Assembly (NCBI GenBank): GCA_041658465.1
Contig: JBBAAC010000001.1
Coordinates: 1-58,228 of the forward strand
Source: a bacterium
Lineage (GTDB): Bacteria > UBA10199 > 2-02-FULL-44-16 > JAAZCA01
Reading direction: 5' to 3'
Length of the DNA: 58,228 nt
Shown: positions 4,301-54,599 of the stretch, one piece after another
Layout of the letters: the number at the start of each line of letters is the position of its first letter
Position numbering within the stretch: position 1 is the stretch's first letter
The notes under the pieces: model-generated
Databases searched by the model: none
What the model was told of the DNA's origin: nothing
Seen by the model: only the letters and a program-made list of their open reading frames with translations
Position numbers and translations under genes: made by a program

Positions 4301-7300
4301 CTGACTTCCTTTGTGCGGGAGAGATTCGTAGCGCGATACATCACGGATGAAGCGCTGCAGGCCTTCGCTGAACGCTATGTCTCTCACAGGCTGACATCCG
4401 TATCGCCGGTCGACACGGACGGAATCGTAGCGGAGGCCCTCGGGGACGCGTTTGTGCCGCACCTCGACATCACCGAGAAGATGGCGGCGTTCTACCGCAC
4501 GCTCGTGGGCCGCTGGTTCACATGGGCTGAAGAGCAGCTCTCAAGCAGGGTCGAGGAGGGCATGCTCGCAATCGATACCGTCGCCGAGGATGCTGACAAC
4601 CTGCCGCCAACGGTTGAGATACTCATGTTGAGGGCCGCCGACCTGGCGGGCGCCGTCTCCTTTGACGATCTCGTAGCAGCGGAGCAGAAGCTCCTGCTCC
4701 TGCGCGAGCTTTTGGGGGATCGTCCATCGGGAGAGCCGCTGAAAGCCGCTGCCCTGCGCACCTATAGCGAACGGGTAATTCCCGCACAAGAAGCGCGGCG
4801 CGCACGAATGGGACGCGAATTCATTGCGCGCAACACCTCCCTTGAGACGGAGCTCAGCCTGATGGCGCGAGAGGTCTCAGGACACCTCGAGCGATCGGCG
4901 AAGATCTTCATAAGGGCCCCGGAGATATTGGAAATGGACGAGCGGGCCGTGACTGCGTTCATGGCAAGCATCCAGTCCAGCTTCAACAATCTTTCGGACA
5001 TCCAGAGATCTCACTTACACTTGGGGGATCTGTCTGGAAAGGCGGCGCGCATAGCCGAACAGCTTGGCCACGGCGAAGGCGCAGTACGGACAATCCGTGA
5101 GAATATGGTCAGGGCGGAACAGAACATCGCAAGGGCGCAGGACCAGATCGTGGAGGCCCATGCAGCGGGCAAGAAGAGACAGAGCGAGCTAAGACAATTG
5201 TCCGATGTCTCCCAAGCCGAGCGGCGGGCGGCCGAGGCGCAGGCTGATGCGGAGGCGCTCATCGAGAGCCTGGAGAGATCCCTGCAGGAACTCGAAGAAC
5301 TCCGCGCAAATGATGTCGCTCAGAGCTCAGCGGATTTTGAGAAAATCAAGCAGTCCCTGAACCAAGACTCTCCAGCAGACGTCCTGAGATTCGCGGCGGC
5401 GGTCCAGGCCTCGGCTTCCCTGTCAGGATCGACTTCGGGGATCATGATGAGGCTGGATGTGCTGCGAAGTCAGATCGTCGAACTGATCGAAGTGCACGAC
5501 CCCTCGTCGGACGCGCCTTCCCTGACTTCGCACGCGTCGCAGCGTCTCGTGGATGCAATGGCCGCAGCAGTCGATGACGCCCGCTGGAATGAGCTTGCAG
5601 CCACCGCGGGGCGGCTCTCCACTGCGATCCACAATGGCGGGCGAACGGCGGACGATATCCAGGCCATCATCCAGGGCATGGAGACGAGGATCTCGGAGCT
5701 CGCGGATGCGCTGTCGAATGCGGAGAATAGGCTGCCGATCGGGCCGATGGCGGGACTCGATTTGTCCAAACAGGGCGTCGCACCTGCGGAAGAAGGCAGG
5801 TACGATTTTGCATCGGAGGCGCCGGAGGGAAATTACGATACCAGGGCGCAGAACGCGCTGAAGCCCCTGCTCTTTGGCCGGATACTCTCCCGCCGCGGCG
5901 AGGCAAGGCAGATCGGCCAGCAGCAGGCATCGCTCGTAGATGGATGGCTCAAATCCGGACGGCGCAGCCCGTTGTCGATCCGCGACGCATTCGGGAATAC
6001 CGTCGAGATTGCGAAGGAGGAGCGCGGCATCAGGCTCGCAAATCACGAGGAGCTGCCCCAGGAGCATCCGCTGCATCGCCTCATCAATACGCTGGGCGCG
6101 GCTGTGGCGGAGAACAGCGCGGAGGCCGGCCTGATAGCGCTCTTCGCAAGGGAAGGACTGAGGGGGGGGAGGTCCCACGCCCTGCTCCTCGATCTATTTG
6201 CAAACCTCGCATCAAGGCCGATTGCAGGTGCCCCCTCTGAAGCGCGCGGGATCGTGCGCGAGTGGGCGCTGTCTAACAGGGCGAGGATCGTCTCCGCGCT
6301 CAGGAAGCCGGCCAAGATCTTCTTTGTCTCGAAGGGAGGGCCGGCCCCGATAACGATAAGTTCGATCGGACTCCGCCCGCCCTCCTACACGCCAGATGAA
6401 CACGCAAGGCTGGCCCGCCGCTTCGCGCGGTTGATCGAACATCCTGAGTTTGGCACCATGATCGCCAATCTCCCTGATGGGACCAGGCGTTTTCTCAACG
6501 TGGACGTGCTCGAGGTACGCCAGGCTCTTCAGGAGGGAAAGAGATCGGTGCGTCACTTCGATCTCGACGACGGAAAGTGGATGAGCTTCGACCTGCGCCT
6601 TAACGGAATCGCGTCGCTCGATCAGCTGGCGCTCGACAGCGCGCCTGTCGCATTGCAGCCCGAGCGGCTCGCCTTGATGCGCCTAATGTGGAGGATCCAC
6701 AGCGATCCTGCGCTCATCGATCTCGGCTGGATCGCCTCTGCCGCCGCCGATGCCTCCATGCCGATTCATCACATGCTCCAGAGCACTCTCAAGACCATAG
6801 CACACGCGGAACAGCGGCCCGGCGGCAAACCGCCGCTCGATCTACACGCTGCGCAGAACGAGATGCGGGGGGCCTATAAGGAGCTGGCGATCGGAGCCGC
6901 CTCGCTTCCGGAGGCGGAGCGCGTAAAAAAACCGGTCCTCCTGGACTGGTTGGCTCGAATCGGTCCAAGCGCGGGAAAGATCCGCGAACTCATCGAGAGC
7001 AGCCCGACCGTTCGCCGAATGGCCGCGAGGGTATTCCTCATGCACGAGTGGTCGACGCGCCATGGCAACGAGTCGGACGCGGCTGAAATCCGCGAGACGT
7101 TCGCGCAGGTGGAGGAGCTCATGCTCTCGCACCGCGAGCAGCGCGAGGCCGCACTCGAGAAATTCATGCGCGATGACTATCTCTCGATACGTCCAGCGGT
7201 GATCGCGGACAGCGAACTCATGCAGTCCTCCACCGGCCTGCATGCGCCTCAGCTGATCGCGCCGTTTACCGCGCCCGACGCGGAGCTGGCACGGCTCTGG

Positions 7301-10221: not shown

Positions 10222-10700
10222 GGCTGGCCTGCCCGCCGGCTGGCAGGCGGGCAAACCGACACCGAGTTATTTCCAGCTCATGCGGCTAACGGTGGAATTA
10301 TAGCCTTCGCGGTCCCCATTGCTCGAAGCCTGCCTGCCGGTAGGCAGGCCGCGGGTCATCGCTTGCTCCGTGCCAGTGTCGTGTCCCATTGCATTGCCAC
10401 AAACGTGAAAACCCCGCTTACTGCATGCCAATACGCAAGTATATCATGGCGCATGATGAGCGGTGTCCCCAGCCCAGCTTCGAGCAATGGGGACCGCGGT
10501 GGCAGGTGATTCACCGTTAGCCTTATAAACTGACCTAGACTCGTTATCGGCTTGCGAGATGATGGGCTGGGGACACTGCTCCTTATGTGGCGAGGAGCAT
10601 AACCTGCCTGCGGGCTTGCGAGATGCCAGCCGCGGATCACCGCGTACTTTGGCACGTAGCCAGCCGCGGATCACCGCGTACTTTGGCACGGTGTCGGCTT
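10222..10700. repeat. Composite MITE-like structured repeat (R-element), locus 1, with a tandemly duplicated terminal segment
   Basis: The left arm (ccgacaccgagtt ... ggctaacggtgga ... gcggtccccattgctcgaagcc) is complementary to the right arm (gcttcgagcaatggggaccgc ... tcaccgttagcc ... actcgttatcggc). It has the same architecture as 47802-48215 and matches the single unit at 23048-23258. The segment agccgcggatcaccgcgtactttggcac occurs twice in tandem at 10627-10690. Confidence 0.8.
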
Positions 10701-23047: not shown

Positions 23048-23258
23048 CTGCGGAGTGGCACGCAGTAAGCGGGGTTCCGCCGTTTATCGATAGGCCGCGA
23101 ACAACGGCGCAGAATAAGCGGTGACCTGCGGCAGGCTTCGAGCAATGGGGACCGCGAAGGCTATAATTCCACCGTTAGCCGTATGAGCTGAGACCAACTC
23201 GGTGTCGGCTTGCGAGATGCCAGCCGCAGGTCGCCGCGTACTTCATGGCACGTAGCCA
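23048..23258. repeat. R-element, locus 2 (single unit, opposite orientation)
   Basis: gtggcacgcagtaagcggggttccgccgtttatcgataggcc...gcggtgacctgcggcaggcttcgagcaatggggaccgc...caccgttagcc...aactcggtgtcggcttgcgagatgccagccgcaggtcgccgcgtacttcatggcac is the reverse complement of the left unit at 47802-47995. Confidence 0.8.
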
Positions 23259-31588: not shown

Positions 31589-32779
31589 TCAGCTGCGGAG
31601 CATGGCGGGAAGGTGCGCCCTAATGCGCTCTGCAGCCATCGCGCACTCCTCGATCGAGGGCACCAGGGCCAGGCGGACAAAGCCCTCCCCGGGATTCCCG
31701 TCCGGCGTGGGCTCGCTTATCCAGTTGCCGGGCGTGGCCACTATGGCGATCGACGGATCCAGGAGCTTCTCGGCAAATGCCACGGATGTTATTCCCTCCG
31801 GCACGCGCTGCCAGATGTAGAGCGTGGCTGCCGGCCTGCACTCGGGAAGCCCTGCGGCAACGAATGCATCGACGATGAGGTCGCGCTTCTGGCGATAGAG
31901 CTGGCGGAGATTTTCCACATGCGACTCGTCCGAGAGCGCTGCTGCGGCCGCGTCCTGGATAAATGTAGGCGTGCCGGAGTCGATGTTGGTCTTGAGCTTC
32001 TTGAACGCGGAGACGATCTCGCTGCCGCCCGCCACCCACCCCACGCGATAGCCGGTCATGCAGCTGCGCTTTGAGAGCGACTGAAACGCGATCACTCCAT
32101 CCTTAGCGACCTCGAGCATCGAGTGCGGTGCCTCGCCGTAGTAATTCTCCGTGTACGCCTCGTCCGACGCGATGACGATGTCGTTCTTGCGGCCGAACTC
32201 GACTACCTCTTTCAGGAACGCAAGCGGGGCCACGGCGCCCGTGGGGTTGTTGGGATAATTCACCCACATGAGCCTGGCGCGGCGGCGTATATCCGCGGGA
32301 ATCGAATCCAGGTCAGGCAGAAATCCGCGCTCCTCGTGGAGGTTCACGTAGTGGACCTGCCCTTCTGCAAATCGCGTCCCGCGCGTATAAGGCGGGTAGC
32401 CTGGGTTCGGCACGATCACCACGTCGCCGGGATCTACGATCGCCTCGTGAAAATTGAAGACCGCTTCCTTGGAGCCGATCGACGCGGAGATCTCGGTCTC
32501 CGGGTCGAGCTTCACGCCAAAGCGCTTTTCAGTCCACGCAGCGATGGCGCCGCGGTATTCCTTTGATCCTACATAGGACGGATACCCGCTCGATGCGCGC
32601 ACATCCACATACTTTTTGATCGCGGAGCGCACGATCTCCGGCGCGGGCTCGGTGGGGTCACCCACCCCGAAGTCGATCACCTTTGCGCCGGACGCACGCA
32701 GATCAGCCACCTTCTTATCGATCTCGGCAAACGCATAGCCTGTGAGCGAAGAAAGACGTTTGGAAATCGTGATAATCAT
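31589..32779 (-). CDS. Class I/II aminotransferase, probably an LL-diaminopimelate aminotransferase-like enzyme
   Basis: The N-terminus has IDFGVGDPTEP and the PLP lysine context is SLSKRSCMTGYRVGW. NYPNNPTG is present. The length is 396 aa. Confidence 0.65.
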   Translation of the reverse strand: MIITISKRLSSLTGYAFAEIDKKVADLRASGAKVIDFGVGDPTEPAPEIVRSAIKKYVDVRASSGYPSYVGSKEYRGAIAAWTEKRFGVKLDPETEISASIGSKEAVFNFHEAIVDPGDVVIVPNPGYPPYTRGTRFAEGQVHYVNLHEERGFLPDLDSIPADIRRRARLMWVNYPNNPTGAVAPLAFLKEVVEFGRKNDIVIASDEAYTENYYGEAPHSMLEVAKDGVIAFQSLSKRSCMTGYRVGWVAGGSEIVSAFKKLKTNIDSGTPTFIQDAAAAALSDESHVENLRQLYRQKRDLIVDAFVAAGLPECRPAATLYIWQRVPEGITSVAFAEKLLDPSIAIVATPGNWISEPTPDGNPGEGFVRLALVPSIEECAMAAERIRAHLPAMLRS

Positions 32780-33079
32780 CCTGCCTCCCCTTGTGTCATT
32801 GCGGGCCCTTCGACGTTGGGCTTCGGCTGCTGAGCTCAGTCGAAGCCCTCAGGGCGAAGCCTGCCTGCCGGCAGGCAAGCAATCCCCCGCAAACAGTGCC
32901 GCCGCTTATTAGCGATTTCGACAATAAATGAAAATAAGCAACCGCATCCTTATTAAAGGAAACTTTAATTAGATGGACGCTTATTTAAGTTTAGGGCGTT
33001 ATCCTTAAATAAGAAATTTAAAGGCCATATATTACAGCTACTTACAACACCATCTTTTTTCGCCATCTCGGCTTAATTC

Positions 33080-33165
33080 GCGCAACATTTTCCTTTGCCT
33101 GCCGATAATAATAAAGTGGGGGTCGGCCCGTCAGGGTAAGTGATAGTAAAATCAACGAGTTAACC
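33080..33165 (+). promoter_or_regulatory. Conserved 5' leader/promoter block of the EF-hand/HExxH gene family (copy 1)
   Basis: gcgcaacattttcctttgcctgccgataataataaagtgggggtcggcccgtcagggtaagtgatagtaaaatcaacgagttaacc matches 37417-37502 with roughly 12 mismatches and one indel. It contains a gataataat -10-like box. Confidence 0.45.
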
Positions 33166-34851
33166 GTGCCTGGCACCAAGTCCATATCCGAGGTCAAGGA
33201 TCTCTACGACCTCATCGAGCTCTATGCGAACCTCGATCGCAACAACGACGGTTTGCTGGGGCCCGGTGAAGTGTCAGCCGAGGAGATCAAGGCGGGAGAT
33301 AAGGAAAGCCCATCCGCTGGCGTACCGGATGGATTTCTTCAGCCCTGGGAGGTCATGGAGATGCGGGGCCCCACGGTCTTCAATCCCGTGGAGACGATCC
33401 GGATGAGGTCGTGGAACAAAGAGGCAGCATATAAAGGGTTCCCCGATATCCCATCTCTTCCTCGAGACGTCGAGATCGGCGGTGTGACCTACAAATCCGG
33501 AACGCCACTCCCCTTTCATTTATGTACACATTATTCAAGGGTCGCGGGCGGCGTACTCGCAAGGCCGACAATACTTCCATCAATACCGCAAATCACTTTT
33601 CCAGCGGATTCAGTAATGTCTTTTAGCTATGACTTCCATAGCTCGAATATTCGCACGCTCTCTGTTGTCTTAGGAGCAGATGCCACCATTAACGGAGTCT
33701 TTTGCAAAAAGGATACCCGCCTCTTTTTTAGTGATGGAAAGCTGTCCATGATTCAATCTGAACAAGGTTTTCTCATAAACAATGTGCGATATATACTCGC
33801 ATACTTCAAGGATGGGGCATTGGACTTCGGAGATCTCGCTGAAACTGCACGTCTTCCCGTCAATCAGCGCACTTCGTATCTCTTTCAGGGACGAGTTCAA
33901 TTCAATCGACGCGGCATGGTCAAATCAGGAAATCTTGCAGAGGATGTCCCAAGCCCTTATGGCGCACGTTACAAACACCCCGCAGGCGCTTATATCTCTT
34001 TCTTTGCTGATGGGACGCCAATGGAAGGTACGGTTGAATGTTTCAAGGCGCATTTCCCCGGCATTGTGCTTTCGGGCTCAGTCTCAGAAAAAGACATCCT
34101 GCTGGCTATGGAGACTTTCTCTCAACTGAGTCCGCAGACGCTCGCCAACATCAAAGGCATCCGTTTCCAATATGAAGAGTTGCCAACTACATTGGGAGAC
34201 AAGGCTGGTGGTTATGCAAATCCTTTTAACAAGACTATCTATATGAGAAAGGGCAACGCAGATTCGCCGACTGTCTCCTCTATCGCCCATGAAGCAGCAC
34301 ACATAAGGCATCTCACGCTCCAGGAGGAAACCACAAAACGCATCGCTGCTGCTACGCGACACCTAGATCCCTCGAACCCGAATGATATGGTCGAAGATGC
34401 CGCTATCACACGGCAAATTTTCTCAAGGAGTTTCGATGCAAAGTGGAGTCGTGCAGCAAGATATGATTTCAGCTTCTCGATCGCAGACCTTATCTCGTAT
34501 CAGCGTTCTTTGAAACAGTACGACGAAGGACACACCAGAACGAAAGTCAGCGACACTACTGACTATCCAAAAGAGGGATTCATAAATGACTACGGACGAG
34601 TGAGCATATGGGAAGATATTGCGACGCATGTACAAATGACCTACGAAAATCCCGAAAGATATGCGCAACTGATTGATGCCTATTCTTCTTTTTATTTAGA
34701 GCACCCCGACCAACGCCCCTATGCGCAGGTCTATCGCGCTAAACTGGAACTCCTGCGCGAATACGGCTTCATCACCGAGGCAAAGTACCGCGAGATCGTG
34801 CCGGTGCATCCTGACGTGGTCGCGTTCTGCGGGGCCGTGAATTGTCCGTAA
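33166..34851 (+). CDS. EF-hand plus MORN-variant-like repeat plus HExxH (HEAAH) protein, paralog 1
   Basis: It has a GTG start, and the upstream frame is closed by tga/tag/taa. The EF-hand loop DRNNDGLLGPGE is canonical. Repeats are FFSDGKLSMIQ, YFKDGALDFGDL and FFADGTPMEGTV. The HExxH context is SIAHEAAHIRHL, with a downstream EDIAT. The C-terminal end is YGFITEAKYREIVPVHPDVVAFCGAVNCP. Confidence 0.7.
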   Translation: MPGTKSISEVKDLYDLIELYANLDRNNDGLLGPGEVSAEEIKAGDKESPSAGVPDGFLQPWEVMEMRGPTVFNPVETIRMRSWNKEAAYKGFPDIPSLPRDVEIGGVTYKSGTPLPFHLCTHYSRVAGGVLARPTILPSIPQITFPADSVMSFSYDFHSSNIRTLSVVLGADATINGVFCKKDTRLFFSDGKLSMIQSEQGFLINNVRYILAYFKDGALDFGDLAETARLPVNQRTSYLFQGRVQFNRRGMVKSGNLAEDVPSPYGARYKHPAGAYISFFADGTPMEGTVECFKAHFPGIVLSGSVSEKDILLAMETFSQLSPQTLANIKGIRFQYEELPTTLGDKAGGYANPFNKTIYMRKGNADSPTVSSIAHEAAHIRHLTLQEETTKRIAAATRHLDPSNPNDMVEDAAITRQIFSRSFDAKWSRAARYDFSFSIADLISYQRSLKQYDEGHTRTKVSDTTDYPKEGFINDYGRVSIWEDIATHVQMTYENPERYAQLIDAYSSFYLEHPDQRPYAQVYRAKLELLREYGFITEAKYREIVPVHPDVVAFCGAVNCP

Positions 34852-34889: not shown

Positions 34890-34918
34890 TGGACAAAACC
34901 CGCTTAATAACTTATAAT
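34890..34918 (+). promoter_or_regulatory. Sigma-70-like promoter (TGGACA-17 nt-TATAAT) immediately upstream of the parE-like toxin
   Basis: The -35 is at 34890-34895 and the -10 at 34913-34918. The ATG at 34927 lies only 8 nt after the -10, implying a leaderless or near-leaderless mRNA. Confidence 0.35.
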
Positions 34919-34926
34919 GTCCATAA

Positions 34927-35190
34927 ATGTGGACAGTTAAAATATCTTCCCAGGCGGGTCGTTTCTATGCCTCCCTTCAGGGGAGGGAACAAGCGAGGGT
35001 CGCTGCGGCCCTTGACCAGCTCGCCCAGGATCCCCGAACGGGCAAATCCCTCAGGGGTGAACTGAAGGGTTACTGGTCGTACAGGGTCGGCGTCTATCGC
35101 ATTCTGTACTCGATCGAAGAACATGAAGTCGTCGTTCACATCCTTCGCATTCAGCATCGCAAGGAGGTCTACGAACGCTTCAGGAGGTGA
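34927..35190 (+). CDS. RelE/ParE-family type II toxin
   Basis: LRGELKGYWSYRVGVYRILYSIEEHEVVVHILRIQHRKEVY matches the PF05016 pattern (KL.G....yRiRvGdyRiiY.i......i..i.hRkd.Y). Confidence 0.8.
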   Translation: MWTVKISSQAGRFYASLQGREQARVAAALDQLAQDPRTGKSLRGELKGYWSYRVGVYRILYSIEEHEVVVHILRIQHRKEVYERFRR

Positions 35191-35192
35191 CT

Positions 35193-35465
35193 ATGGCTCA
35201 GCTCATTTCGGTCTCGAAGGCAAAACAGCGGCTGCTGGAACTCGCCAGGCGCTCTCACGATCAGGGCGAATCCTTCATCCTGCTCAGGGACGGAGAGCCC
35301 GTGAGCGCCATGATTCCGTTTGATGAATACGAGTCCCTGCTGGAGACGCTGGACATCCTGGAAGACGAACCCGACATCCTCTCCAAACTCAAACGCGCCG
35401 AGAAAGAAATGCGGAAAGGAAAATTCGCCGTCTGGAAGGGAAGAAAACCAGCGCCCACCCGTTGA
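35193..35465 (+). CDS. Phd/YefM-family antitoxin (encoded downstream of its toxin)
   Basis: AGGAGG lies 5 nt upstream. The sequence reads ISVSKAKQRLLELARRSHDQGESFILLRDGEPVSAMIPFDEYESLLETLDILED. The toxin stop abuts the ribosome-binding site. Confidence 0.8.
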   Translation: MAQLISVSKAKQRLLELARRSHDQGESFILLRDGEPVSAMIPFDEYESLLETLDILEDEPDILSKLKRAEKEMRKGKFAVWKGRKPAPTR

Positions 35466-35501
35466 CCCGACTTTCTCCGGATGAACCATTTGTTGCATAA
35501 T

Positions 35502-35591
35502 TACGGCTTCATCACCGAGGCAAAATACCGCGAGATCGTGCCAATGCATCCCGACATGGCCGCGTTCTGCCAGACCGTGAATTGTCCATAA
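35502..35591 (+). pseudogene. Orphan 3' terminal fragment (29 codons plus stop) of a third EF-hand/HExxH family gene
   Basis: tacggcttcatcaccgaggcaaaataccgcgagatcgtgccaatgcatcccgacatggccgcgttctgccagaccgtgaattgtccataa encodes YGFITEAKYREIVPMHPDMAAFCQTVNCP*. It has 8 mismatches in 90 nt to the 3' end of the 37503..39467 gene. No upstream gene body is present. Confidence 0.85.
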
Positions 35592-35674
35592 TTCGCATTT
35601 TCCTTTGACGCTGAGAGAGAGAATGGTTATAATTCTGACCATAAGGGGTCGGCCTTAGGCACGGGAGGTTCTGC

Positions 35675-35941
35675 ATGAAATCTATCAAGGCGACGGATGC
35701 GAAGAAACATCTGCTGGAAATCCTCCGGGATGCAGACGAGTCCTTTGAGCGCTACTGCATCACTCGAAACGGCGAGCCGAAGGCGATCCTCATGTCCGTG
35801 GACGATTATGAGGGATGGCTCGAAACCCTGGCAATCTTAAGCGACAAGAAGGCGGTGGCGGAAATTCGAAAGGCCCGCAGGGAGCTGAATGCCGGCAAAG
35901 CGATCCCTTTCGAAAAAATCCTGGAGAAGCTCTGTGCCTGA
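35675..35941 (+). CDS. Phd/YefM-family antitoxin
   Basis: IKATDAKKHLLEILRDADESFERYCITRNGEPKAILMSVDDYEGWLETLAILSD. It overlaps the downstream toxin by 8 nt. Confidence 0.85.
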   Translation: MKSIKATDAKKHLLEILRDADESFERYCITRNGEPKAILMSVDDYEGWLETLAILSDKKAVAEIRKARRELNAGKAIPFEKILEKLCA

Positions 35942-36194
35942 ATATCGCATTGTCTTTGCGCCAACAGCTGAGAAGCAATTGTTTGCGCTGACCAGGACCA
36001 TCCGCCTGCGCGTGGCTCATGCCATCGCAAAACTCGCCGATGATCCATTCTTGGGGAAACAGCTCAAAGGCGACCTCAAAGACTACCGATCCTGGCGAGT
36101 TGGAGATTATCGGGTCGTCTACTTTATCCGGAAGCATATCATTCAGATCGAGATCGTACGCATCGCGCATCGTCGCGAAGTCTATCGGCACTGA
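35934..36194 (+). CDS. RelE/ParE-family type II toxin (GTG start)
   Basis: VPEYRIVFAPTAEKQL...LKGDLKDYRSWRVGDYRVVYFIRKHIIQIEIVRIAHRREVY. The GTG at 35934 overlaps the antitoxin stop (gtgcctga). Confidence 0.8.
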   Translation: MPEYRIVFAPTAEKQLFALTRTIRLRVAHAIAKLADDPFLGKQLKGDLKDYRSWRVGDYRVVYFIRKHIIQIEIVRIAHRREVYRH

Positions 36195-36255: not shown

Positions 36256-37308
36256 TCACGCGATGCGGTAGAGACTCCCCTTCCTTGAACCTTCCATCGC
36301 TATGAGTCCACCCTGCTTCATGCGCGCGAGAATCGCCTTCAGCGTCACGCGTTTGATGCCTGAGTTGCGCTCCAGGAATCCGATGCTCGCGGGCTGATGC
36401 AGGCGGATGAGACCCAGCACTTTTTCTTCAAGGACCGTGAGAGTCCCAGACTTCTTCGGCATCCATTGCTTTTGCAGATAGTTTGCCTGCTGCTCAAGGG
36501 CGTTCAGGAAAAAGAGGAACCACGGGTTGATGTCTGCAGTCGCCTTGAGCGTTGCCTGCGTTTGCCGCAGAGCGATGTAATAGCCCTCCTTGTTATCCTC
36601 CACAACCTTCTCATGCGATGAATACATGCAGAATTCGTATCCCAGCTTTATAAGACACAGATTCGTGAGCAGCCGTGCCATGCGGCCGTTGCCGTCGCGA
36701 AACGGGTGGATCGCGAGGAATTTGACGATGAATGCCGCGATGACCTCCAGCTCTGAATAGTTCAAGTCACCGATGAACGCGTTGTAATCGTCCACGAGTT
36801 CGCGCATCTCGACGTCGGTCTGAACGCCCGGCGGCGTGGTCTCAAAGATTATCTCCCGCTCGCCCGTCGCGTGATCGATGCGTACGACGGAATTCGGGAC
36901 ATTCTTGTACGCGCCCCTCTGGTTCGCGGGGAGCACATCATTTGAAAGATATGAGCACATCATCTGGTGCAGCGATCGGACCGAGTGCTCGCTAATTTCG
37001 ATTTCGCGATAGTGGTCGAAGATATGGTGCAGGCAATCGATATAGCCCGCGACCTCCGCCTCGTCTCGGTCGTGGATCTTTTGAATCTTGAGCCCCTCAA
37101 GGCGTGCGACGATCTCATCATCGGAGAGCTTCGCCCCCTCTATACGCGTCGAGGCGCCTGCGGAGGTGATGATCGTGGTTTTCTTGAGTCCGGCGTAGAG
37201 ATCTCGGCTCGCCTCTTTTGAAATCTCCCACAGTTCTCTGAATGCACTTATGGCCTGAATTTTTTTCAGGACCTGCGGATTGAGCGGTGATTTGAGGAAG
37301 TTTCTCAT
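36256..37308 (-). CDS. Fic-family protein (AMPylase-type) with an intramolecular inhibitory motif and a C-terminal winged-helix domain
   Basis: The Fic motif is HPFRDGNGRMARLL. The N-terminal inhibitory motif is STRIEGA, of the form (S/T)xxxE(G/N). The C-terminal wHTH-like tail is IGFLERNSGIKRVTLKAILARMKQGGLI. The start was chosen at MRNFLKS; the tracked start at 37344 would run through direct-repeat DNA. Confidence 0.8.
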   Translation of the reverse strand: MRNFLKSPLNPQVLKKIQAISAFRELWEISKEASRDLYAGLKKTTIITSAGASTRIEGAKLSDDEIVARLEGLKIQKIHDRDEAEVAGYIDCLHHIFDHYREIEISEHSVRSLHQMMCSYLSNDVLPANQRGAYKNVPNSVVRIDHATGEREIIFETTPPGVQTDVEMRELVDDYNAFIGDLNYSELEVIAAFIVKFLAIHPFRDGNGRMARLLTNLCLIKLGYEFCMYSSHEKVVEDNKEGYYIALRQTQATLKATADINPWFLFFLNALEQQANYLQKQWMPKKSGTLTVLEEKVLGLIRLHQPASIGFLERNSGIKRVTLKAILARMKQGGLIAMEGSRKGSLYRIA

Positions 37309-37416
37309 ACCATTAAATATGCCATATAATATGCCATAAATCAATTAAATCCATAAAATACCCCATATTTTATACCAAATACCTGCCTGAGAAACGACTG
37401 ACAGCCATATATACAG

Positions 37417-37502
37417 CGCAACATTTCCCTTCGTCAGCCGATAATAATGATGTGGGGGGTCTGCCCGTCAGGGCAAGTGACAGTAAAACCAACGAGTTAA
37501 TC
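37417..37502 (+). promoter_or_regulatory. Conserved 5' leader/promoter block of the EF-hand/HExxH gene family (copy 2)
   Basis: See 33080-33165; this is the same block with one extra g. Confidence 0.45.
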
Positions 37503-39467
37503 GTGCCTGGCACCAAATCCATATCCGAGGTCCGGGATCTCTACGACCTCATCGACCTCTATGCGAACCTGGATCGCAGTGGGGATGGGCTCATCGGTGC
37601 CGGAGAGATGCCCGCCGAAGAGATCAGCAAGACCGACGTCGGCAGTACGCCGTATGAAAAAAACCGGCCCGATGGATTTCTCGCACCGTGGGAGATCATG
37701 CAGCGTCAGGCGCGTTTCTTTGGCTCCACCGAGGTCGCGCAAATGCGCACCCAAAACCAGGCGTCACTCGGCAGCGCCTTTTCGGACATCATGAGCCTTC
37801 CAAAGGATGTCGCCTTTGGGCCGCTCAGGTTTAAGGTCCATACGGCCTTGCGTTTCTGGCAGAATGGACGCATCCAGGAAGCCACGCTCGCTGAGCCCAC
37901 CGACATCTCCGTGCTCGCGCGACAATGCCACATGCACACGCCTCCAGATGATGGCGACCTGAAATCGCTCCCGGCAGGCACAAGGATATGGCTTGATCCG
38001 GACGGGACGCTCAAGGAGATCGAGCTGGGCGGCCCCGCGCACATCAGGGGAATAGACTTCACTGCCGGCATTCGGATCAGGTTCAAAGGGAATAAGAAGA
38101 TCGGGGAAGCAGATGCAACACACGAACCGATTGTCATAAACAACATTGCCTACACTCGAGTCGTTTTCCTTGAAAACGGCGATCAAGTCCGGACCCTGAA
38201 GGACGATACCTCAGTGCCGTTTTTGCGTCTCGTGTATAGTTACAATTATTTCGGGTCTGTCGCTGACTCCAAGACGAGCGTAAGCCTTCCCTGTAAAGCA
38301 AAGACTGACGTCCGGTTCAATCCTGATAGGTTTGCTATTCAGGGTGTGCTTGCCCAGGGCCAACGCATGTTTGAATATGAAGGCAAGTCCGGCGGTCTGG
38401 AAGTCGCACTTCCCCCAGGCACCAAAATACATGTCGGCGACGGAAGCGTGACTCAATTCCGCGCAGAACTCGGCGATGACTTCAGATTTCAAGGTGTGCA
38501 TGCGGGGCAAGGCGATATTTTTGAGGAAATCAGTGAAAGAGATCTGGAAGGCATGATCGATGCAAAATGGTATTTTACGAATGAATATGTCGTCCGACTC
38601 AGATCGAATCATGGCAGCATCCGCATCGGCGGTGTGCACGCCACGGAGGCAACAATCGATGCGGCCGGCGTTGTATGGGCAACGCTCGCGGGGGATTTCC
38701 AAAGCCCCTATGGCAGCGGGAGGGTCTATCGAGCCGGTGAAAATGTATTTCTTTCAGCAGATGGAAGATTTCTGGAACCGACGATGAAGTGTTTTGAGAC
38801 ACTGTATCCGGGAATCAAACTTTTCGGCGTCAACAATGCCAACGAACTCTTGCATATCCTGACGGGCATGGCGGCCCTGCCCCCTGCTATACGGAGAAGC
38901 CTCCGAAAGGTCAGCTTCGTGGATGATTTTGATTACTCCCGTCATCCTGATATTCCATGGTTCGCTAGCATTAAGGGAGAAGCTGATCCTGTCGACATTG
39001 GTAGTTTTCGACTAAGTCGGTACTCTTCGTTGCAAGGAAGCATGCATCCAGATCAGAGAGGCGAATTGCGTTTCCTCCACGAGGCAGCGCACGTGCACAC
39101 GCTTCGAGTTGGCGAAGAGTTTAAACGAAAATGGCTGAAGGTTGAATATTCCCTTTTACCAAAATGGATTCAGGAACGGTTGAAGGCCGAAGGTCTCGAG
39201 ATAAATAATACCATAGAAGCTTGCATCACTGAATATGGATGCAGGAATTTTTATGAAGATGTCGCGACGATGACTGAAGCAGCGACCTTTAAGCCGACCT
39301 TGTTTCGACGGTGGATTGATCCCGGAGTTCACAGGCACGCCCCCGCCTTCCGCGCCAAGCTCGATCTCCTGCGCGAGTACGGCTTCATCACCGAGGCGAA
39401 GTACCGCGAGATCGTGCCGGTGCATCCCGGAATGGCCGCGTTCTGCCAGGCCGTGAATTGTCCGTAA
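37503..39467 (+). CDS. EF-hand plus MORN-variant-like repeat plus HExxH (HEAAH) protein, paralog 2 (a 17-codon upstream extension to 37452 is possible)
   Basis: The GTG start is homologous to paralog 1. The EF-hand loop is DRSGDGLIGAGE. Repeats are FWQNGRIQEATL, WLDPDGTLKEIEL and LSADGRFLEPTM. The HExxH context is FLHEAAHVHTL, with a downstream EDVAT. The C-terminal end is YGFITEAKYREIVPVHPGMAAFCQAVNCP. Confidence 0.7.
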   Translation: MPGTKSISEVRDLYDLIDLYANLDRSGDGLIGAGEMPAEEISKTDVGSTPYEKNRPDGFLAPWEIMQRQARFFGSTEVAQMRTQNQASLGSAFSDIMSLPKDVAFGPLRFKVHTALRFWQNGRIQEATLAEPTDISVLARQCHMHTPPDDGDLKSLPAGTRIWLDPDGTLKEIELGGPAHIRGIDFTAGIRIRFKGNKKIGEADATHEPIVINNIAYTRVVFLENGDQVRTLKDDTSVPFLRLVYSYNYFGSVADSKTSVSLPCKAKTDVRFNPDRFAIQGVLAQGQRMFEYEGKSGGLEVALPPGTKIHVGDGSVTQFRAELGDDFRFQGVHAGQGDIFEEISERDLEGMIDAKWYFTNEYVVRLRSNHGSIRIGGVHATEATIDAAGVVWATLAGDFQSPYGSGRVYRAGENVFLSADGRFLEPTMKCFETLYPGIKLFGVNNANELLHILTGMAALPPAIRRSLRKVSFVDDFDYSRHPDIPWFASIKGEADPVDIGSFRLSRYSSLQGSMHPDQRGELRFLHEAAHVHTLRVGEEFKRKWLKVEYSLLPKWIQERLKAEGLEINNTIEACITEYGCRNFYEDVATMTEAATFKPTLFRRWIDPGVHRHAPAFRAKLDLLREYGFITEAKYREIVPVHPGMAAFCQAVNCP

Positions 39468-47697: not shown

Positions 47698-47801
47698 CAA
47701 AGGGAATATATCGGCATTCCGTACTGTTGACAAGGAGTTAGAAAGCTACGTACCACAAAGCGAGCAGGGCTCCCGGCCCTCTCGGCGAACGAGTCAACAC
47801 C

Positions 47802-48215
47802 GTGCCTAAGTACGCGGTGACCCACGGCTGGCATCTCGCAAGCCGACACCGAGTTGAGCTCAGATCGTATGGCTAACGGTGGATTTTCAGCCACCGCGGT
47901 CCCCATTGCTCGAAGCCTGCCGCAGGTCACCGCTCGCTCCGTGCCACTGATCGTGGCCCATCGATAAACGGGGGAAACCCGCTTGCTATGTGCCACTACG
48001 CGAGTTGAATCAAGGCGCAGGACGAGCGGGGTCCCCAGCCCAGCTTCGAGCAATGGGGACCGCAAAGCTAGTGATTCACCGTTAGCCTTATAAGTTGAGC
48101 TAAACTCGGTATCGGCTTGCGAGATGATGGGCTGGGGACCCCGCTTGAGCAGTGGCGATGGACAAGGTGCGTGAGGACGGAGCCAGCCGTGGGTCACCGC
48201 TTGCTTTGCCTGCAT
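47802..48215. repeat. R-element, locus 3: best-preserved composite copy, with perfect 19-nt terminal inverted repeats
   Basis: gcggtgacccacggctggc (47813-47831) is the exact reverse complement of gccagccgtgggtcaccgc (48183-48201). The internal arms pair as ccgacaccgagtt/aactcggtatcgg, ggctaacggtgga/tcaccgttagcc and gcggtccccattgctcgaagc/gcttcgagcaatggggaccgc. Confidence 0.85.
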
Positions 48216-50344: not shown

Positions 50345-50437
50345 ATACGCGATTGCGTCGCAGGGCACGCGCCAGAGGGGCTGGCGCAGGCGCTTCTGAT
50401 CGAAGATGTGGCCGAAAAATCCGATGGAGCGGCCGAC
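50345..50437 (-). pseudogene. Displaced remnant of the aclA 3' end (about 31 codons)
   Basis: The minus-strand translation [31 protein letters not shown] compares with the intact aclA end [31 protein letters not shown]. In DNA I counted 10 mismatches in the 74-nt core against 52737-52829. Confidence 0.85.
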
Positions 50438-50461
50438 CCAGCGCGCCCGATGAGTAATTTT

Positions 50462-50884
50462 TCAAACGGGATAGTGCTTACGAATGTATTTCACGAACTC
50501 TTCAAAATCACCAAGGCGTTCCGCGATGACCGTGTAGAGCTGTTCCAGATCGATATCCCAGTAGATGTGGACGAGGCGATTGCGAAACCTTGCCATCTTC
50601 TTCATCTCCTCCGCAAAGTCAGACGGCAGTATTCCGCCCTTCTCCAGGAGTGAAAACGTATCCTGGTAACTCCGGGGAATACCCAGCCGCTCCTGCGCCA
50701 CGATATGATTTCCGACAGAGAGACACGCCTCGATGGCAAGCTGCAGCGCATGCATCACCGCATATTGCCTTTCCTTGTTCTTCTGAAATTGCGCGGATGT
50801 GATATCCGAAAGATCTTTGAGGTCTTTCGTCAACGAGAGAATCTCCTGCGTCCTCTTCTGCAAGGTTGCGATGTCCACAGCCAT
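50462..50884 (-). CDS. hepT: HepT-like HEPN-domain (DUF86) toxin
   Basis: The Rx4H motif context is RNRLVHIYWDID. The length is 140 aa. Its start overlaps the upstream MntA stop (ATGA). Confidence 0.8.
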   Translation of the reverse strand: MAVDIATLQKRTQEILSLTKDLKDLSDITSAQFQKNKERQYAVMHALQLAIEACLSVGNHIVAQERLGIPRSYQDTFSLLEKGGILPSDFAEEMKKMARFRNRLVHIYWDIDLEQLYTVIAERLGDFEEFVKYIRKHYPV

Positions 50885-51510
50885 CAGGAAGCCTCCTTGA
50901 GGTCTTTGTAGGCGTCCGCATAAAAATGATCGAGGACCGGGGAATAATCCAGGTATCTAGTGATGACGCCCTCTTCAAAGGCTGCAAGCGACTCATGCGA
51001 CCTTACGTAGATCGCCGAACCATCGCGAATGACCCTGTACTGAATTGCAACAGGCGCTGAGTTCAAGCAGACAAGATCGATGCGCGTTGCGTTGGGAACA
51101 ATCTCAAGCACGCATGCCTCCAACTTCGCCTCAAGATCGAATGGAGAAGATGATCGATCGTCCAGGTAGGCGACATCGATGTCGCTCAAAGGCGTGGTCG
51201 CTCCCGTGGCCTGAGAGCCAAAGAGATAGAGGAGCTGGATTTCCGTGAGAGAGGCAAAACGATGCGCATTCGCGTGCATGAGCTGCGTTAACGGGACTTT
51301 TTCTTTACCAGCTTCTTTCGACATGCCGCCGGTTTTCATCTGCGATTTTATCCACTCGCCCAGCACATCCTCTGCGAACAGCCAGGCCTTGCCGATCTTG
51401 ACCGCGGGGATCAGGCCCTTCGCGGCCTTGCGATAGATGGTCATCGGGTGCACGCCCAGCCACTTCGCAACCTCCTGAACGGTCAACAGTCTTGGCAATG
51501 TCTTGGACAT
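50884..51510 (-). CDS. mntA: MntA-like minimal nucleotidyltransferase antitoxin fused to an N-terminal excisionase/MerR-type HTH
   Basis: The HTH is LLTVQEVAKWLGVHPMTIYRKAAKGLIPAVKIGKAWLF. The NTase motif is LFGSQATGATTPLSDIDVAYL (GS...DxD). Confidence 0.75.
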   Translation of the reverse strand: MSKTLPRLLTVQEVAKWLGVHPMTIYRKAAKGLIPAVKIGKAWLFAEDVLGEWIKSQMKTGGMSKEAGKEKVPLTQLMHANAHRFASLTEIQLLYLFGSQATGATTPLSDIDVAYLDDRSSSPFDLEAKLEACVLEIVPNATRIDLVCLNSAPVAIQYRVIRDGSAIYVRSHESLAAFEEGVITRYLDYSPVLDHFYADAYKDLKEAS

Positions 51511-51531
51511 AGTTCTATTGTATTAAACTTC

Positions 51532-51562
51532 ATTTAACATTGCAATCATTCAATTTAACATT
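51532..51562. promoter_or_regulatory. Two 10-nt direct repeats (atttaacatt) spaced 21 nt start-to-start upstream of mntA, a putative operator
   Basis: atttaacatt occurs at 51532-51541 and 51553-51562, in an AT-rich 97-nt gap directly upstream of the HTH-MntA start. Confidence 0.4.
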
Positions 51563-51607
51563 TCGCCCCAATACTGACCGCAAATGCTTGTTTCCGCTTC
51601 CTGAACC

Positions 51608-52585
51608 CTACGAATCGTCCCCTTCTTTCAAATATCGCGAAAACAGGTTCTTCGTCAGATGCGTGACGAATGGACTCACGTCCTTCCACTCAAGACGCGC
51701 GTCTGCGAGGGCGTTTGCCCCCTCGCGTTTGATGTCCTGACCCATGCGCTTCATCACTTCACCCAGGGAGGAGACGTCGATCGGGATCTGCTCCTCGCGT
51801 AGCTGATCGAGCACGTGATCGAGGCGCACGGGCGTCACAAATTCCTCCGCAAACTCCTTGGCCCCGGGGATGATGGGTCTTTCCTTCGCGAGCGTCCTCG
51901 GGTGCTTTGTGGCAGACGCGCGCTCGGCCCACTTCCCCACCTTGTACTTCGCCATGACGGGGTTTCCTTTGGCGTCCCACTGCATCTCGATGGGCCTCAC
52001 GACGATGCCCTCGATCGTGTTTTCGGGATCATCGATCCCGTTCTCGCAACCCACGCGCGACATCGTGTCGATGAGGTTATTGAATATCTGCGCATCCGGC
52101 CTCCCGCGAAAGAGCACGGGCGTGGTCTTGAGCCCCACCTTCGCCGCCCACGCGGGGATCTCGTCCTGAGGGAGGTATTTGCCGTTGAGCCTGATGTCGA
52201 AGACGCGAAAGTCGTTGCCCTTTATGTAGCGTATGCCCTTCTGGATCTGCGGCCATTCCTTTGACGGCGTGCCGCTGCCGTGCCACTCGCCGTAGAGGAT
52301 CACATCGTGGCCGGCAAATGTTGTTTCGATCCTCTTTTCGAGCCCCGTGTCCAGCACCCACGAGACGAATCCCTGCCCCTCTTTGCTCTCGGGCCGGATA
52401 TCGTTAAAATCGAGCTTGCGACCACCGAACCTGAGCCGGCCATCGATAAGGCCGATGCGCATCGCGCTCCCGTGCACCTTCTCTGTCACGATGACCTCCG
52501 GCAGCTCAAATATTGCCGGCACCTCGTCGATGTTCTCTATGTGCGGATATTTTGTGAATTTGTCTGGTGCCATAAATGTGATCAA
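51608..52585 (-). CDS. Rnl2-family (PF09414-like) ATP-dependent RNA ligase
   Basis: The nucleotidyltransferase motifs are in order: I, TEKVHGS (lysine nucleophile, compare T4 Rnl2 EKIHG); III, ILYGEW; IV, EGIVVRP; V, AKYKVGK. Confidence 0.75.
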   Translation of the reverse strand: MITFMAPDKFTKYPHIENIDEVPAIFELPEVIVTEKVHGSAMRIGLIDGRLRFGGRKLDFNDIRPESKEGQGFVSWVLDTGLEKRIETTFAGHDVILYGEWHGSGTPSKEWPQIQKGIRYIKGNDFRVFDIRLNGKYLPQDEIPAWAAKVGLKTTPVLFRGRPDAQIFNNLIDTMSRVGCENGIDDPENTIEGIVVRPIEMQWDAKGNPVMAKYKVGKWAERASATKHPRTLAKERPIIPGAKEFAEEFVTPVRLDHVLDQLREEQIPIDVSSLGEVMKRMGQDIKREGANALADARLEWKDVSPFVTHLTKNLFSRYLKEGDDS

Positions 52586-52718
52586 TCCAGTGTCAAGCGC
52601 TGTTCGATTTCAGAGCAAACCTCATTCTTGTGCCCGATTGCAAGGATTTGCACTTCCCCTGCCTGGTACTGCGATTCATTCTGACATTTCTGTTTTTGCT
52701 GACCGCTGATGGCTGGTT

Positions 52719-54599
52719 TTATTTCACCTCCGTCATATACGCGATATCATCATACGGCACGCGCCAGAGCGGTTGAGCCAGGCGCTTCTGGTCGAAGATG
52801 TGGCCGAAGAGGCCGATGGATCGGCCGACAACGAAGAGCGCGTTGAGGCAGCCGAGGTCGATGATCTCATCGACCTGTTCCTTGGTGAATAGATCCGGCA
52901 GGGACCAGAGCAGGTCCACGAACGTGATGCCGATGCAGCCGTCCACGTTAAGGATGAGCGTGCCCTTTTTCTGCGTGGTTATCGCCTCCACCTCGAGCGC
53001 GTATTTCAAGAGATCCGTCTTTGGGAAGGTCTTGAACACATATTCCTTGAGCTGGGTCACGCGCATGTCCGGGTTCGTCACGCTCTTCACGAGGTGCCCG
53101 ATGCCCGGGATATTCTCGCCCTTCTTCTTCATATCGCCTATGAACTCATCGGGCGTAAGGCCGGACGCATACGCGCGCTTGAAGTTCTGCGCAGCGCCGT
53201 CGATGGCGCCGCCGAAGCGCGGGCCGATCGTGAGCAGCCCGGATACGAGAGAAGAGATGATGTCCTTGCCCGCGCGCGCGGTGACGATGGCGTTGTGCGC
53301 GCCGGACACGGCCGGGCCGTGATCGGACGTGAGCATGAGCACTGTTTCGAGATACTTCGCGGCGAACTTCGGAAGCCGGCGCTTGAACCACAAAAGCCCG
53401 ATCACGCCGCCGATGCCGATCTCGTCACCGATCACCTGTGAGATCGGCATGTCGCTGTAGGTCAACTCCTCGCCCCTGTCGTTTGAGATCGTGCAGACGA
53501 AGGACGCTGGTTTGCGGATCACGCCTTCCTTGAGGGCCTGAGCGTAATCCATCGGGAACTTCGGAGCGGGGACCTCCGCAGCTGGTTTTATCGTGCCTTC
53601 CTTCACCAGCATGTCGAACGTGGCGCGTATCGCGTCGCCATAGTCGTCGAATGAAGTCGGCACCACTGCGCCGGCCTCCTTGAGCGCCGCGTTCTTCGCG
53701 TCTGCGGTCTCGAGGGCCGTGTCCGCCTTTGCGCCGGCGTGGCCGAACTGCACGCCCGCTGGGAACATCTTGGAGCAGGTGCCCGTGACCCAGATGACGA
53801 GCGGCTTTTTTATCTTTCCCGCCTTGAGCGCGTCCACGATCTTGAGTTCCTCGGTGCCGCCGATCTCTCCGAGGGCCGCGATCATCTTCACCTCCGGGAT
53901 CTGCTCGTAGCGCAGGATGTGATCCAGGAGCGTGGAGCCGGGATAGGCGTCTCCGCCGATGGCGATGCCCTCGTAGAGGCCGTCGGAGTTGCGCGCGATG
54001 ATGTTGTAGCACTCGTTGGAGAGCCCGCCCGACTTGGAGACGAAGCCCACGCTGCCTGGCCTGTGCAGCTTGCTCTCGACGATGTTATCTATGGTGCCCG
54101 CCGTGTTGCCGATCTTGAAGCAACCTGCCTTGATGCCGCCCACTGTGGCGGGCCCGATGATCCACTTGCCCTTCTCCCTGGCTGTGGCCGCCAGGATGCG
54201 GCTCTTGCGCTCCGGCACGCCCTCCGCGATCACGGCGATCGTCTTGATGTTCTGGTTCTCAAGCGCCTCCATGGTCGTGGGAAATGCGGAGCGCTGCGAG
54301 GAGAAGTTCACAACAACATCCGCAGTAGCGTGCTTATCGGTCGCCTCCTTGAGCGTGCGGTACATGGGCAGCAAGATTTCCTTCGCACCAAAGAACGCCT
54401 TGTGCCAGCCTGCGCGGGACGGATTCACGATAGCAGCAACAGAGGGTTTAGCGCGGCCGCAGGCAAAGTCAAAGTCCAGCATGCGCTGGATTGCGTTCTG
54501 CTGGTAGCCATAAACGATGGACTCAGTGTTTTTTGTAAAGAGCTCCGCGAAATTCATTGTGCCTCCATATTTTTTGCTCGCTGCTTTCTTTGCCGTCAT
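52719..54599 (-). CDS. aclA: ATP-citrate lyase alpha subunit (CoA-ligase alpha-like plus citrate-synthase-like domains)
   Basis: SIVYGYQQNAIQRMLDFDFACGR and the phosphohistidine loop GHAGA (VQFGHAGAKA) are present. The C-terminal citrate-synthase-like part is TSDHGPAVSGAHN. The gene is paired with aclB. Confidence 0.9.
   Translation of the reverse strand: MTAKKAASKKYGGTMNFAELFTKNTESIVYGYQQNAIQRMLDFDFACGRAKPSVAAIVNPSRAGWHKAFFGAKEILLPMYRTLKEATDKHATADVVVNFSSQRSAFPTTMEALENQNIKTIAVIAEGVPERKSRILAATAREKGKWIIGPATVGGIKAGCFKIGNTAGTIDNIVESKLHRPGSVGFVSKSGGLSNECYNIIARNSDGLYEGIAIGGDAYPGSTLLDHILRYEQIPEVKMIAALGEIGGTEELKIVDALKAGKIKKPLVIWVTGTCSKMFPAGVQFGHAGAKADTALETADAKNAALKEAGAVVPTSFDDYGDAIRATFDMLVKEGTIKPAAEVPAPKFPMDYAQALKEGVIRKPASFVCTISNDRGEELTYSDMPISQVIGDEIGIGGVIGLLWFKRRLPKFAAKYLETVLMLTSDHGPAVSGAHNAIVTARAGKDIISSLVSGLLTIGPRFGGAIDGAAQNFKRAYASGLTPDEFIGDMKKKGENIPGIGHLVKSVTNPDMRVTQLKEYVFKTFPKTDLLKYALEVEAITTQKKGTLILNVDGCIGITFVDLLWSLPDLFTKEQVDEIIDLGCLNALFVVGRSIGLFGHIFDQKRLAQPLWRVPYDDIAYMTEVK

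Follow-up and report, generated by a model that had tools for sequence, protein, structure and literature searches.

The segment at 35502–35660 of the window (the whole 58,228-nt stretch analysed here, which is contig C1 of G000, a 2.45-Mb metagenome bin of 280 contigs) is best explained as an inert recombination scar, without a working regulatory element, in a fast-turning-over island. It begins with an orphan 3' gene end, continues with the outer edge of a gene-family leader, and passes into a toxin-antitoxin cassette with a promoter of its own. In the preferred reading, to which a probability of roughly 0.5 is given, the orphan tail would be the end of the neighboring paralog 1 (P1), displaced or duplicated when a parE-phd pair was inserted, so that no separate gene need have been lost to supply it. 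The region as a whole lies between an aminotransferase gene (31589–32779, minus strand) and spoVR, and its layout is identical in a second, independent assembly of the same population (an ENA contig, with 99.98% identity across 22 kb). Its features are:

33074–33165, plus strand: P1 leader, with a GCAAC-N14-GCCGATAA promoter and a conserved 5'UTR up to the GTG start (seven-leader alignment, nhmmer E=3e-28, promoter spacing statistics)
33166–34851, plus strand: paralog 1 (P1), 561 aa with an HEAAH motif; its final 90 nt (34762–34851) form the upstream member of the tail repeat
34890–35465, plus strand: TA1 islet, with promoter TGGACA-17-TATAAT, a parE/relE-type toxin (34927–35190) and a phd antitoxin (35187–35465), toxin first
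35466–35501, no strand: spacer of 36 nt from the phd1 stop to the orphan tail, with no likeness to family bodies or to the relative's spacer
35502–35591, plus strand: orphan 3' end, 29 codons and TAA; the downstream copy of the tail repeat
35589–35607, plus strand: P1-type leader-edge relic, 19 nt lacking the -35 box GCAAC and joined to the TA2 cassette via a common TTG
35605–35633, plus strand: predicted native sigma-70-type promoter of phd-parE, TTGACG-17-TATAAT, 11/12 to consensus, with boxes and spacing kept at six other loci
35623–35642, no strand: imperfect palindrome ATGGTTATAATTCTGACCAT overlapping the -10 box, the presumed Phd-ParE operator; invariant columns in the cassette alignment
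35645–35654, plus strand: GGGGTCGGCC patch, 10/10 to the family 5'UTR, possibly leader-derived
35675–36194, plus strand: TA2, with a phd antitoxin (35675–35941) and a parE/relE-type toxin (35934–36194) overlapping by 8 nt (Pfam and NCBIfam)
36256–37311, minus strand: fic, convergent with parE2
37410–39467, plus strand: leader (37410–37502) and gene (37503–39467) of paralog 2 (P2); its tail, from 39378, is the third tail copy

The orphan tail encodes YGFITEAKYREIVPMHPDMAAFCQTVNCP followed by a stop codon, and is 88.9% identical over 90 nt to the tail of P1 and 91.2% identical to that of P2 (39378 to about 39468); the P1 and P2 tails are 89% identical to one another across 117 nt. Only three copies of the family tail are present in the whole 2.45-Mb genome, and the 20-mer that begins the tail has three exact copies in the window (0 expected). 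Homology ends at the stop codon TAA on the 3' side and at a sharp break at 35502 on the 5' side. Upstream of that break the reading frame is shut by the phd1 stop (35463–35465), and when remnants of a gene body were sought there, the 36-nt spacer resembled family bodies no better than did shuffles. The original observation of a 90-nt tail with no gene body upstream is borne out by the 89–91% identity to the P1 and P2 tails, the closed frame, the unrelated spacer and the agreement of the second assembly. From its sequence, 35502–35591 is identified as the last 29 codons of the family, in a copy standing apart from any gene body. Five changes are private to the orphan, all of them G-to-A and three of them synonymous, a sample too small to prove either decay or constraint. 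The 36-aa ORF found at the tail is probably no gene.

The stretch that follows the orphan stop had been taken for a degenerate family leader, and the alignment with shuffled controls proposed as a check bears this out against the P1 leader but not against that of P2. Only 3 of 2000 dinucleotide shuffles, and 0–2 of 6000 random genomic windows, aligned to the P1 leader as well as does the site itself; for the P2 leader the figures were 341 of 2000 and 70–985 of 6000, not above controls. The similarity to P1 is carried by three exact blocks, namely the leader edge, GGGGTCGGCC and an "ataat" block. The edge (TAATTCGC plus ATTTTCCTTTG, 35589–35607) matches P1 positions 33074–33097 at 19 of 19 bases with a 5-nt gap, and the five bases absent from the relic can be written as the -35 box GCAAC. 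The 12-mer CATTTTCCTTTG occurs at the relic and in the P1 leader and nowhere else in 4.9 Mb of two-strand sequence; TAATTCGC has 21 genomic copies, and by our own estimate the chance of the second CATTTTCCTTTG copy lying within 10 nt of one of them is below 1e-4. Where the match falls, the family leaders are least conserved, and the agreement is specific to P1: the relic shares only about 14 of 19 positions with the P2 leader. Statistically, then, the 13–16 nt between the orphan stop and the cassette promoter are identified as the 5' edge of a P1-type leader, and since this edge directly abuts the orphan stop, a family gene must once have begun immediately after the tail's stop codon. The proposal that a family stop once adjoined the leader of the next member is in this way upheld.

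Beyond its edge the leader is largely gone. The family 5' edge, AATTCGC and the spacer after it, is present at the site; the -35 box GCAAC is absent, the -10 position reads GGTTATAA instead of GCCGATAA, and of the family's ~60-nt 5'UTR running into GTG-CCT-GGC-ACC only GGGGTCGGCC is matched. A profile HMM built from seven family leaders reported no match at this site at E<=100, since the surviving pieces lack the necessary length and have 38 nt of cassette promoter between them. The GGGGTCGGCC 10-mer has six genomic copies and occupies the place of the second ATGGTCATAA-like repeat of other phd-parE loci, with GGTC common to both; it may be a leader-derived patch (chance being put at roughly 0.01–0.03 by our own estimate). 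What survives of the supposed degenerate leader is thus the 19-nt edge and perhaps the 10-nt patch, while 35605–35644 is better assigned to the cassette.

That assignment comes from comparison of phd-parE loci. TA2 is an overlapping antitoxin-toxin pair by its domains (PF02604 at 3e-18, PF05016 at 2.5e-11, TIGR01552 and TIGR02385), and a DNA search in the order found homologues of ~70% identity at six other loci (G003, G001 contig C10, G008, G006, G012, and contig C95 of G000 itself). These loci are alignable from the -35 box on, through TTGAC, 17 nt and ATGGTTATAATTATGACCAT, with the palindrome spanning the -10 box; 3' of the palindrome come a second ATGGTCATAA-like repeat, GGAGG and then ATG. 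Upstream of TTGAC nothing is common to the loci compared (the leader-edge sequence at the present site is TTCGCATTTTCCT), and a family tail was found at none of the six. A single weak match to the leader profile occurs among them (L035, E=0.0014, ~350 nt from the cassette) and looks like a generic promoter match. Three of the genomes, G003, G006 and G012, carry the phd-parE promoter yet have no family gene. Because 35605–35644 is conserved at six loci, three of them in family-free genomes, it is read as the cassette's own promoter plus presumed operator, and the comparison identifies the phd-parE pair as a self-contained mobile cassette with its own predicted sigma-70 promoter and palindrome from 35605 on. 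The palindrome is presumed to be the Phd-ParE operator by analogy with type II toxin-antitoxin autoregulation. As in Phd/YefM-ParE/RelE type II operons, the antitoxin comes first, the two genes overlap by 8 nt and encode PhdYeFM_antitox and ParE_toxin domains, and a conserved palindrome spans the -10 box; TA2 differs in that the second operator-like repeat is replaced by GGGGTCGGCC.

It follows that the "ataat" and the TTG of "cctttg" in the leader-like stretch belong to the cassette promoter and not to the family. The idea that phd-parE is now driven by a family promoter must be given up, as both family boxes are missing and the cassette's TTGACG-17-TATAAT is in place. The same is true of the suggestion that fic might be expressed in this way: fic lies on the minus strand, convergent with parE2, and so is out of reach of every promoter that precedes phd2. 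G000 has a second phd-parE copy (L038, on C95), which adjoins IS-type ORFs and is bracketed by 48-nt direct repeats (646–691 and 2009–2056, 90% identity) that are not gene-end-like.

The family's own promoter is of another type. In an alignment of the seven leaders of G000 and its same-genus relative G001 (record JAJZQH01, MAG: bacterium isolate SKS1.bin41), the AATTCGC edge is followed by GCAAC, 14 nt and GCCGATAAT, and then by GGGGGGTCGGCCCGTCAGGGCAAGTGAT.GTAAAATCAACGAGTTAACC and GTG. Genome-wide, GCCGATAA is found 207 times against 67 expected, and of the 60 cases in which GCAAC is paired with it, 43 are spaced by exactly 14 nt. Sites of the form GCAAC-N14-GCCGATAA(T) occur in the window at 33082–33109, 37418–37445 and 23040–22990 (minus strand) and on many other G000 contigs, and the -10 box is sigma-28-like; the arrangement is, as predicted from these counts, a genome-wide promoter type. 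A G-run is often seen ~10 nt downstream of these boxes, and mobile toxin-antitoxin cassettes carry consensus sigma-70 promoters instead. A FliA/WhiG-like sigma factor is encoded on C162 (136 bits, below the family cut-off).

The family proteins (an "EF-hand/HExxH" family) have no match in Pfam, NCBIfam or PDB, and a protein search returned only four of them. REPLACED the sole other genome with the family, and an Rfam scan of 32.8–39.7 kb gave nothing at E<=1. At the syntenic site G001 has one family member, about 30% identical to P2, between flanking genes of 78–85% DNA identity; leaders and tails are 80–93% identical between the two genomes. Tails cluster by genome, with two insertions present in all four G001 tails and absent from all three of G000. 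Since tails group by genome, and ends are alike while cores share ~30% identity, the family ends evolve in concert, which also explains why the orphan tail looks fresh. A three-gene array does exist in G001, away from the syntenic site, with HEPN/NTase, YafQ-HTH and AbiEii genes in its spacers. An intact array in which one gene's stop meets the next gene's leader had been expected among relatives; here toxin-antitoxin and defence genes stand between the members, with no direct abutment. The first gene of this array (L027, C3, 5470–7179) has no conserved tail at its end; a tail-like stretch lies internally (6367–6440), with ~740 nt still to come before the stop, and it looks as though the gene reads on into other DNA. 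In G000 a fourth family leader (C35:2101–2005, minus strand) is fused after five codons (VPGTK) to another gene family; its proteins begin with MTALSD..., and it is met again on C35 near 5401 and 9254.

How the tail came to lie where it does is the less certain part. TA1 is enclosed by two tail copies, separated from them by its own promoter (75 nt) on one side and by the 36-nt spacer on the other; that is, 90-nt direct repeats of 89% identity flank a 650-nt parE-phd insert, and between them there is no recombinase or mobility ORF. By this architecture TA1 fits a class of islets flanked by repeated gene ends. A self-BLAST of G000 revealed 17 other loci at which a gene's last 47–175 nt recur 0.4–6 kb downstream at 78–94% identity, and six with the opposite orientation; the orphan-tail repeat is within the length and identity range of the 17. 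Loci with repeated gene ends lie on C78, C66, C128, C23, C179, C58, C101, C139, C160, C127 and C49 and in the window at 50345–52829, with no integrase. Gene content was inspected at seven of the 17. Host genes there include EF-P (three copies), GMP synthase (guaA), a class II tRNA synthetase, an ACT-domain kinase end and ATP-citrate lyase, together with a radical-SAM gene, a TetR gene and an M16 peptidase; the cargo comprises Fic, MNT, AbiEi/AbiEii, an aspartyl-protease pair, Phd-MNT, RhuM, and HepT/MNT with an RNA ligase. At EF-P the three end copies enclose two islets (the Asp-protease pair and AbiEi/AbiEii), and in the aclA island of the window (50345–52829) two copies of the gene's last 93 nt, 83% identical, surround HepT/MNT and the RNA ligase. 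Some of the 17 loci are probably no islets, the intervening genes on C4 and C7 looking ordinary. For the Na/Pi transporter and aclA, comparison with orthologues as a way of telling the original gene end from its replacement found both copies equally similar.

Three further observations concern repeats in these genomes. In G001 a second copy of aclA's last ~128 nt (88%; C16:3761–4438 and 223808–223935) is inverted relative to the first and lies towards the far end of the contig, which is 227 kb long. On C78 (4335–4470) and C139 (within 1494–2702) of G000 the same PLLCKEG.GEVD-coding element occurs in stop-free frames of two unrelated genes or upstream regions, which suggests a small repeat inserted in or beside coding DNA. 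A ~200-nt dispersed repeat family (...CCCCAGCCCATCATCTCGCAAGCCGATAACGAGTCTAAG...GGCTAACGG...) is present in the window at 10237–10574, 23050–23252 (minus strand) and 47801–48001 and on more than 10 other contigs.

In the preferred sequence of events, a P1-type family gene would have begun at the orphan stop, and the phd-parE cassette, perhaps with fic, would have replaced its promoter core and body or split them from the edge, the join between cassette and relic being the 3-nt TTG overlap. The 650-nt parE-phd islet would have entered at the 3' end of P1 together with a tail copy, leaving two diverged 90-nt direct repeats around it, and later gene conversion among family ends would have kept all three tails similar. 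Of the original proposal that phd-parE and fic replaced the body of a downstream member, the family gene start after the tail is retained; that body may have been replaced or merely separated from its edge. These events amount to one islet insertion and one cassette replacement.

The alternative first put forward, a third family gene between parE-phd and the next member whose leader and body were deleted, with the further member replaced by phd-parE and fic, is possible though doubtful. The tail is a true orphan, as it had held; a lost third gene is not established, given that insertion of an islet produces the same picture. Four original genes would have been needed, with two independent losses that spared exactly the 110-nt tail-leader junction, and nothing of a gene body is left upstream of 35502; moreover, the layout is the very footprint left by duplicated gene ends at single-copy housekeeping genes of this genome, where no paralogue can be invoked. 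Evidence for a lost gene comes from G001, which holds the sole TA1 homologue (83% identity), again directly after a family tail. There (L029, C21, 2366–4563) the order is a degenerate orphan tail, the parE-phd homologue, and a family leader with 17 codons ending in a stop, so that parE-phd lies between two family genes; because a family leader and not a second tail follows the homologue, TA1 may be an old resident between two such genes. This order counts against insertion at the P1 end and favours deletion. Orphan heads (on G000 C35 and G001 C21) and the three-gene array of G001 point the same way, and the orphan is as far from P1 as from P2, as would be expected of a third lineage; the three tails being equidistant (89–91%), none is marked as imported. 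The GGGGTCGGCC 10-mer in the TA2 5'UTR, unexplained by a single event, also counts against the preferred reading. Metagenome and species-genome scans yielded no islet-free allele, in which the P1 tail would be joined directly to TTCGCATTTTCC; only G001 has the family, with a different single member at that place. In the G001 spacer after phd1 a decayed tail was sought, with a result no better than shuffles, and a 10-mer shared downstream of the P1 tail and of parE2 (TGCCGATGCA) was equalled in 6 of 500 shuffles among 45 comparisons, which is not significant. Further 3' in L029 there is a 389-aa ORF with an HELAH motif and no Pfam match, and the left flank of this locus matches G000 C49 as far as the tail start.

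An account with no gene loss at all is also conceivable: the P1 stop would have abutted the P2 leader, parE-phd would have duplicated the P1 tail, and phd-parE-fic would have entered the P2 leader and duplicated its first ~24 nt. It calls for only two islet insertions of a kind found across the genome, but is unlikely in view of a relic that is 19/19 to the P1 leader and only about 14/19 to that of P2, and that lacks the GCAAC present in the latter. A function for the tail, either as a 36-aa ORF (ATG at 35481 to TAA at 35591) read through from the parE-phd operon or as a homology arm or terminator kept for cassette exchange, is less probable still. The frame is intact, three of the five orphan-specific changes are synonymous, and a gene caller annotated a 36-aa gene here; in addition, the tail end GTGAATTG can pair with the leader edge TAATTCGC (35577–35606, 8 bp, -6.2 kcal/mol), and as GCAAC is missing this hairpin directly precedes the U-rich ATTTTCCTTT, terminator-like. 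Against these points, there is no Shine-Dalgarno sequence, the RNA fold of 35466–35610 is no better than shuffles (z=0.48), 8% of shuffles match the junction hairpin, the five orphan-specific changes are without exception G-to-A, a pattern that relaxed selection would give, and neither the protein search nor the metagenome and species-genome scans found a standalone homologue. Chance resemblance or mis-assembly is hardly credible. The contig does belong to a metagenome bin, and assemblers can be led astray by repeats; nevertheless, two independent assemblies agree, the copies are distinct at 89–91% across 90 nt, and chance is excluded by the shuffle and genome-wide controls.

Three known systems resemble the proposed insertion of parE-phd at the P1 end. 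Nobusato and co-workers reportedly described, in 2000, how restriction-modification gene units insert with long target duplication. Units of this kind are small and addiction-type, lack an integrase or transposase, and have on either side a direct repeat, some tens to hundreds of bases long, that duplicates the target, often over a gene's 3' end (Furuta, Abe and Kobayashi 2010, PMC2853133). Common to them and the present case are a small addiction unit with no mobility gene and direct repeats of more than 30 bp of a target 3' end. Here, however, a type II toxin-antitoxin pair makes up the cargo, the repeats have diverged to 89% where those of the restriction-modification units are near-identical, the presumed target is a conserved gene end present in several family copies, and only the filled site is known. 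[quoted passage not shown] 2017, PMC5361080), and C-terminal displacement at rhs loci is credited in that paper to Jackson et al. 2009; according to the same source, incoming DNA anchored on the conserved part pushes the old 3' end downstream, generating orphan 3' fragments with no gene body. An orphan 3' fragment without a body, in a variable gene family, is what is seen here too, but those loci lose a variable toxin tip along with the immunity gene to displacement, whereas in the present case it is the conserved last 29 codons that are displaced, with an unrelated toxin-antitoxin pair inserted. In E. coli, the e14 element and phage 21 integrate into icd with a tyrosine integrase and a defined att core, and icdC is the pseudogene that results. 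At icd, as at P1, a functional end stays with the gene, and past the insert there is a second copy of it that has diverged. Between the P1 repeats, in contrast, there is no tyrosine recombinase ORF, and no fixed att core is evident, because the G001 orphan tail starts about 14 nt further upstream.

The segment is a scar of a known kind. For annotation it means that the 36-aa ORF is probably no gene, that phd-parE has its own promoter, and that the promoter of the family is of a different type. For the family, it is a dated footprint of a time when its genes stood stop-to-promoter and of the invasion of this array by toxin-antitoxin cassettes, and it shows homogenisation of the family ends in each of the genomes, against cores that have diverged to about 30% identity. 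A more speculative and rather improbable extension is that the conserved ends of this fast-diverging family serve as portable "homology arms", so that "tail plus parE-phd" would be an integrase-free addiction cassette hopping from one family gene to another by host recombination through the 90-nt repeats, in the same mode that seeded islets behind EF-P, guaA, the tRNA synthetase gene, aclA and others; if true, the cassette would both integrate and excise through these repeats. Together with the other loci, the segment provides a natural set of examples, from an uncultured lineage, in which islets with toxin-antitoxin and defence genes spread integrase-free, through either long target duplication or 3'-end displacement.
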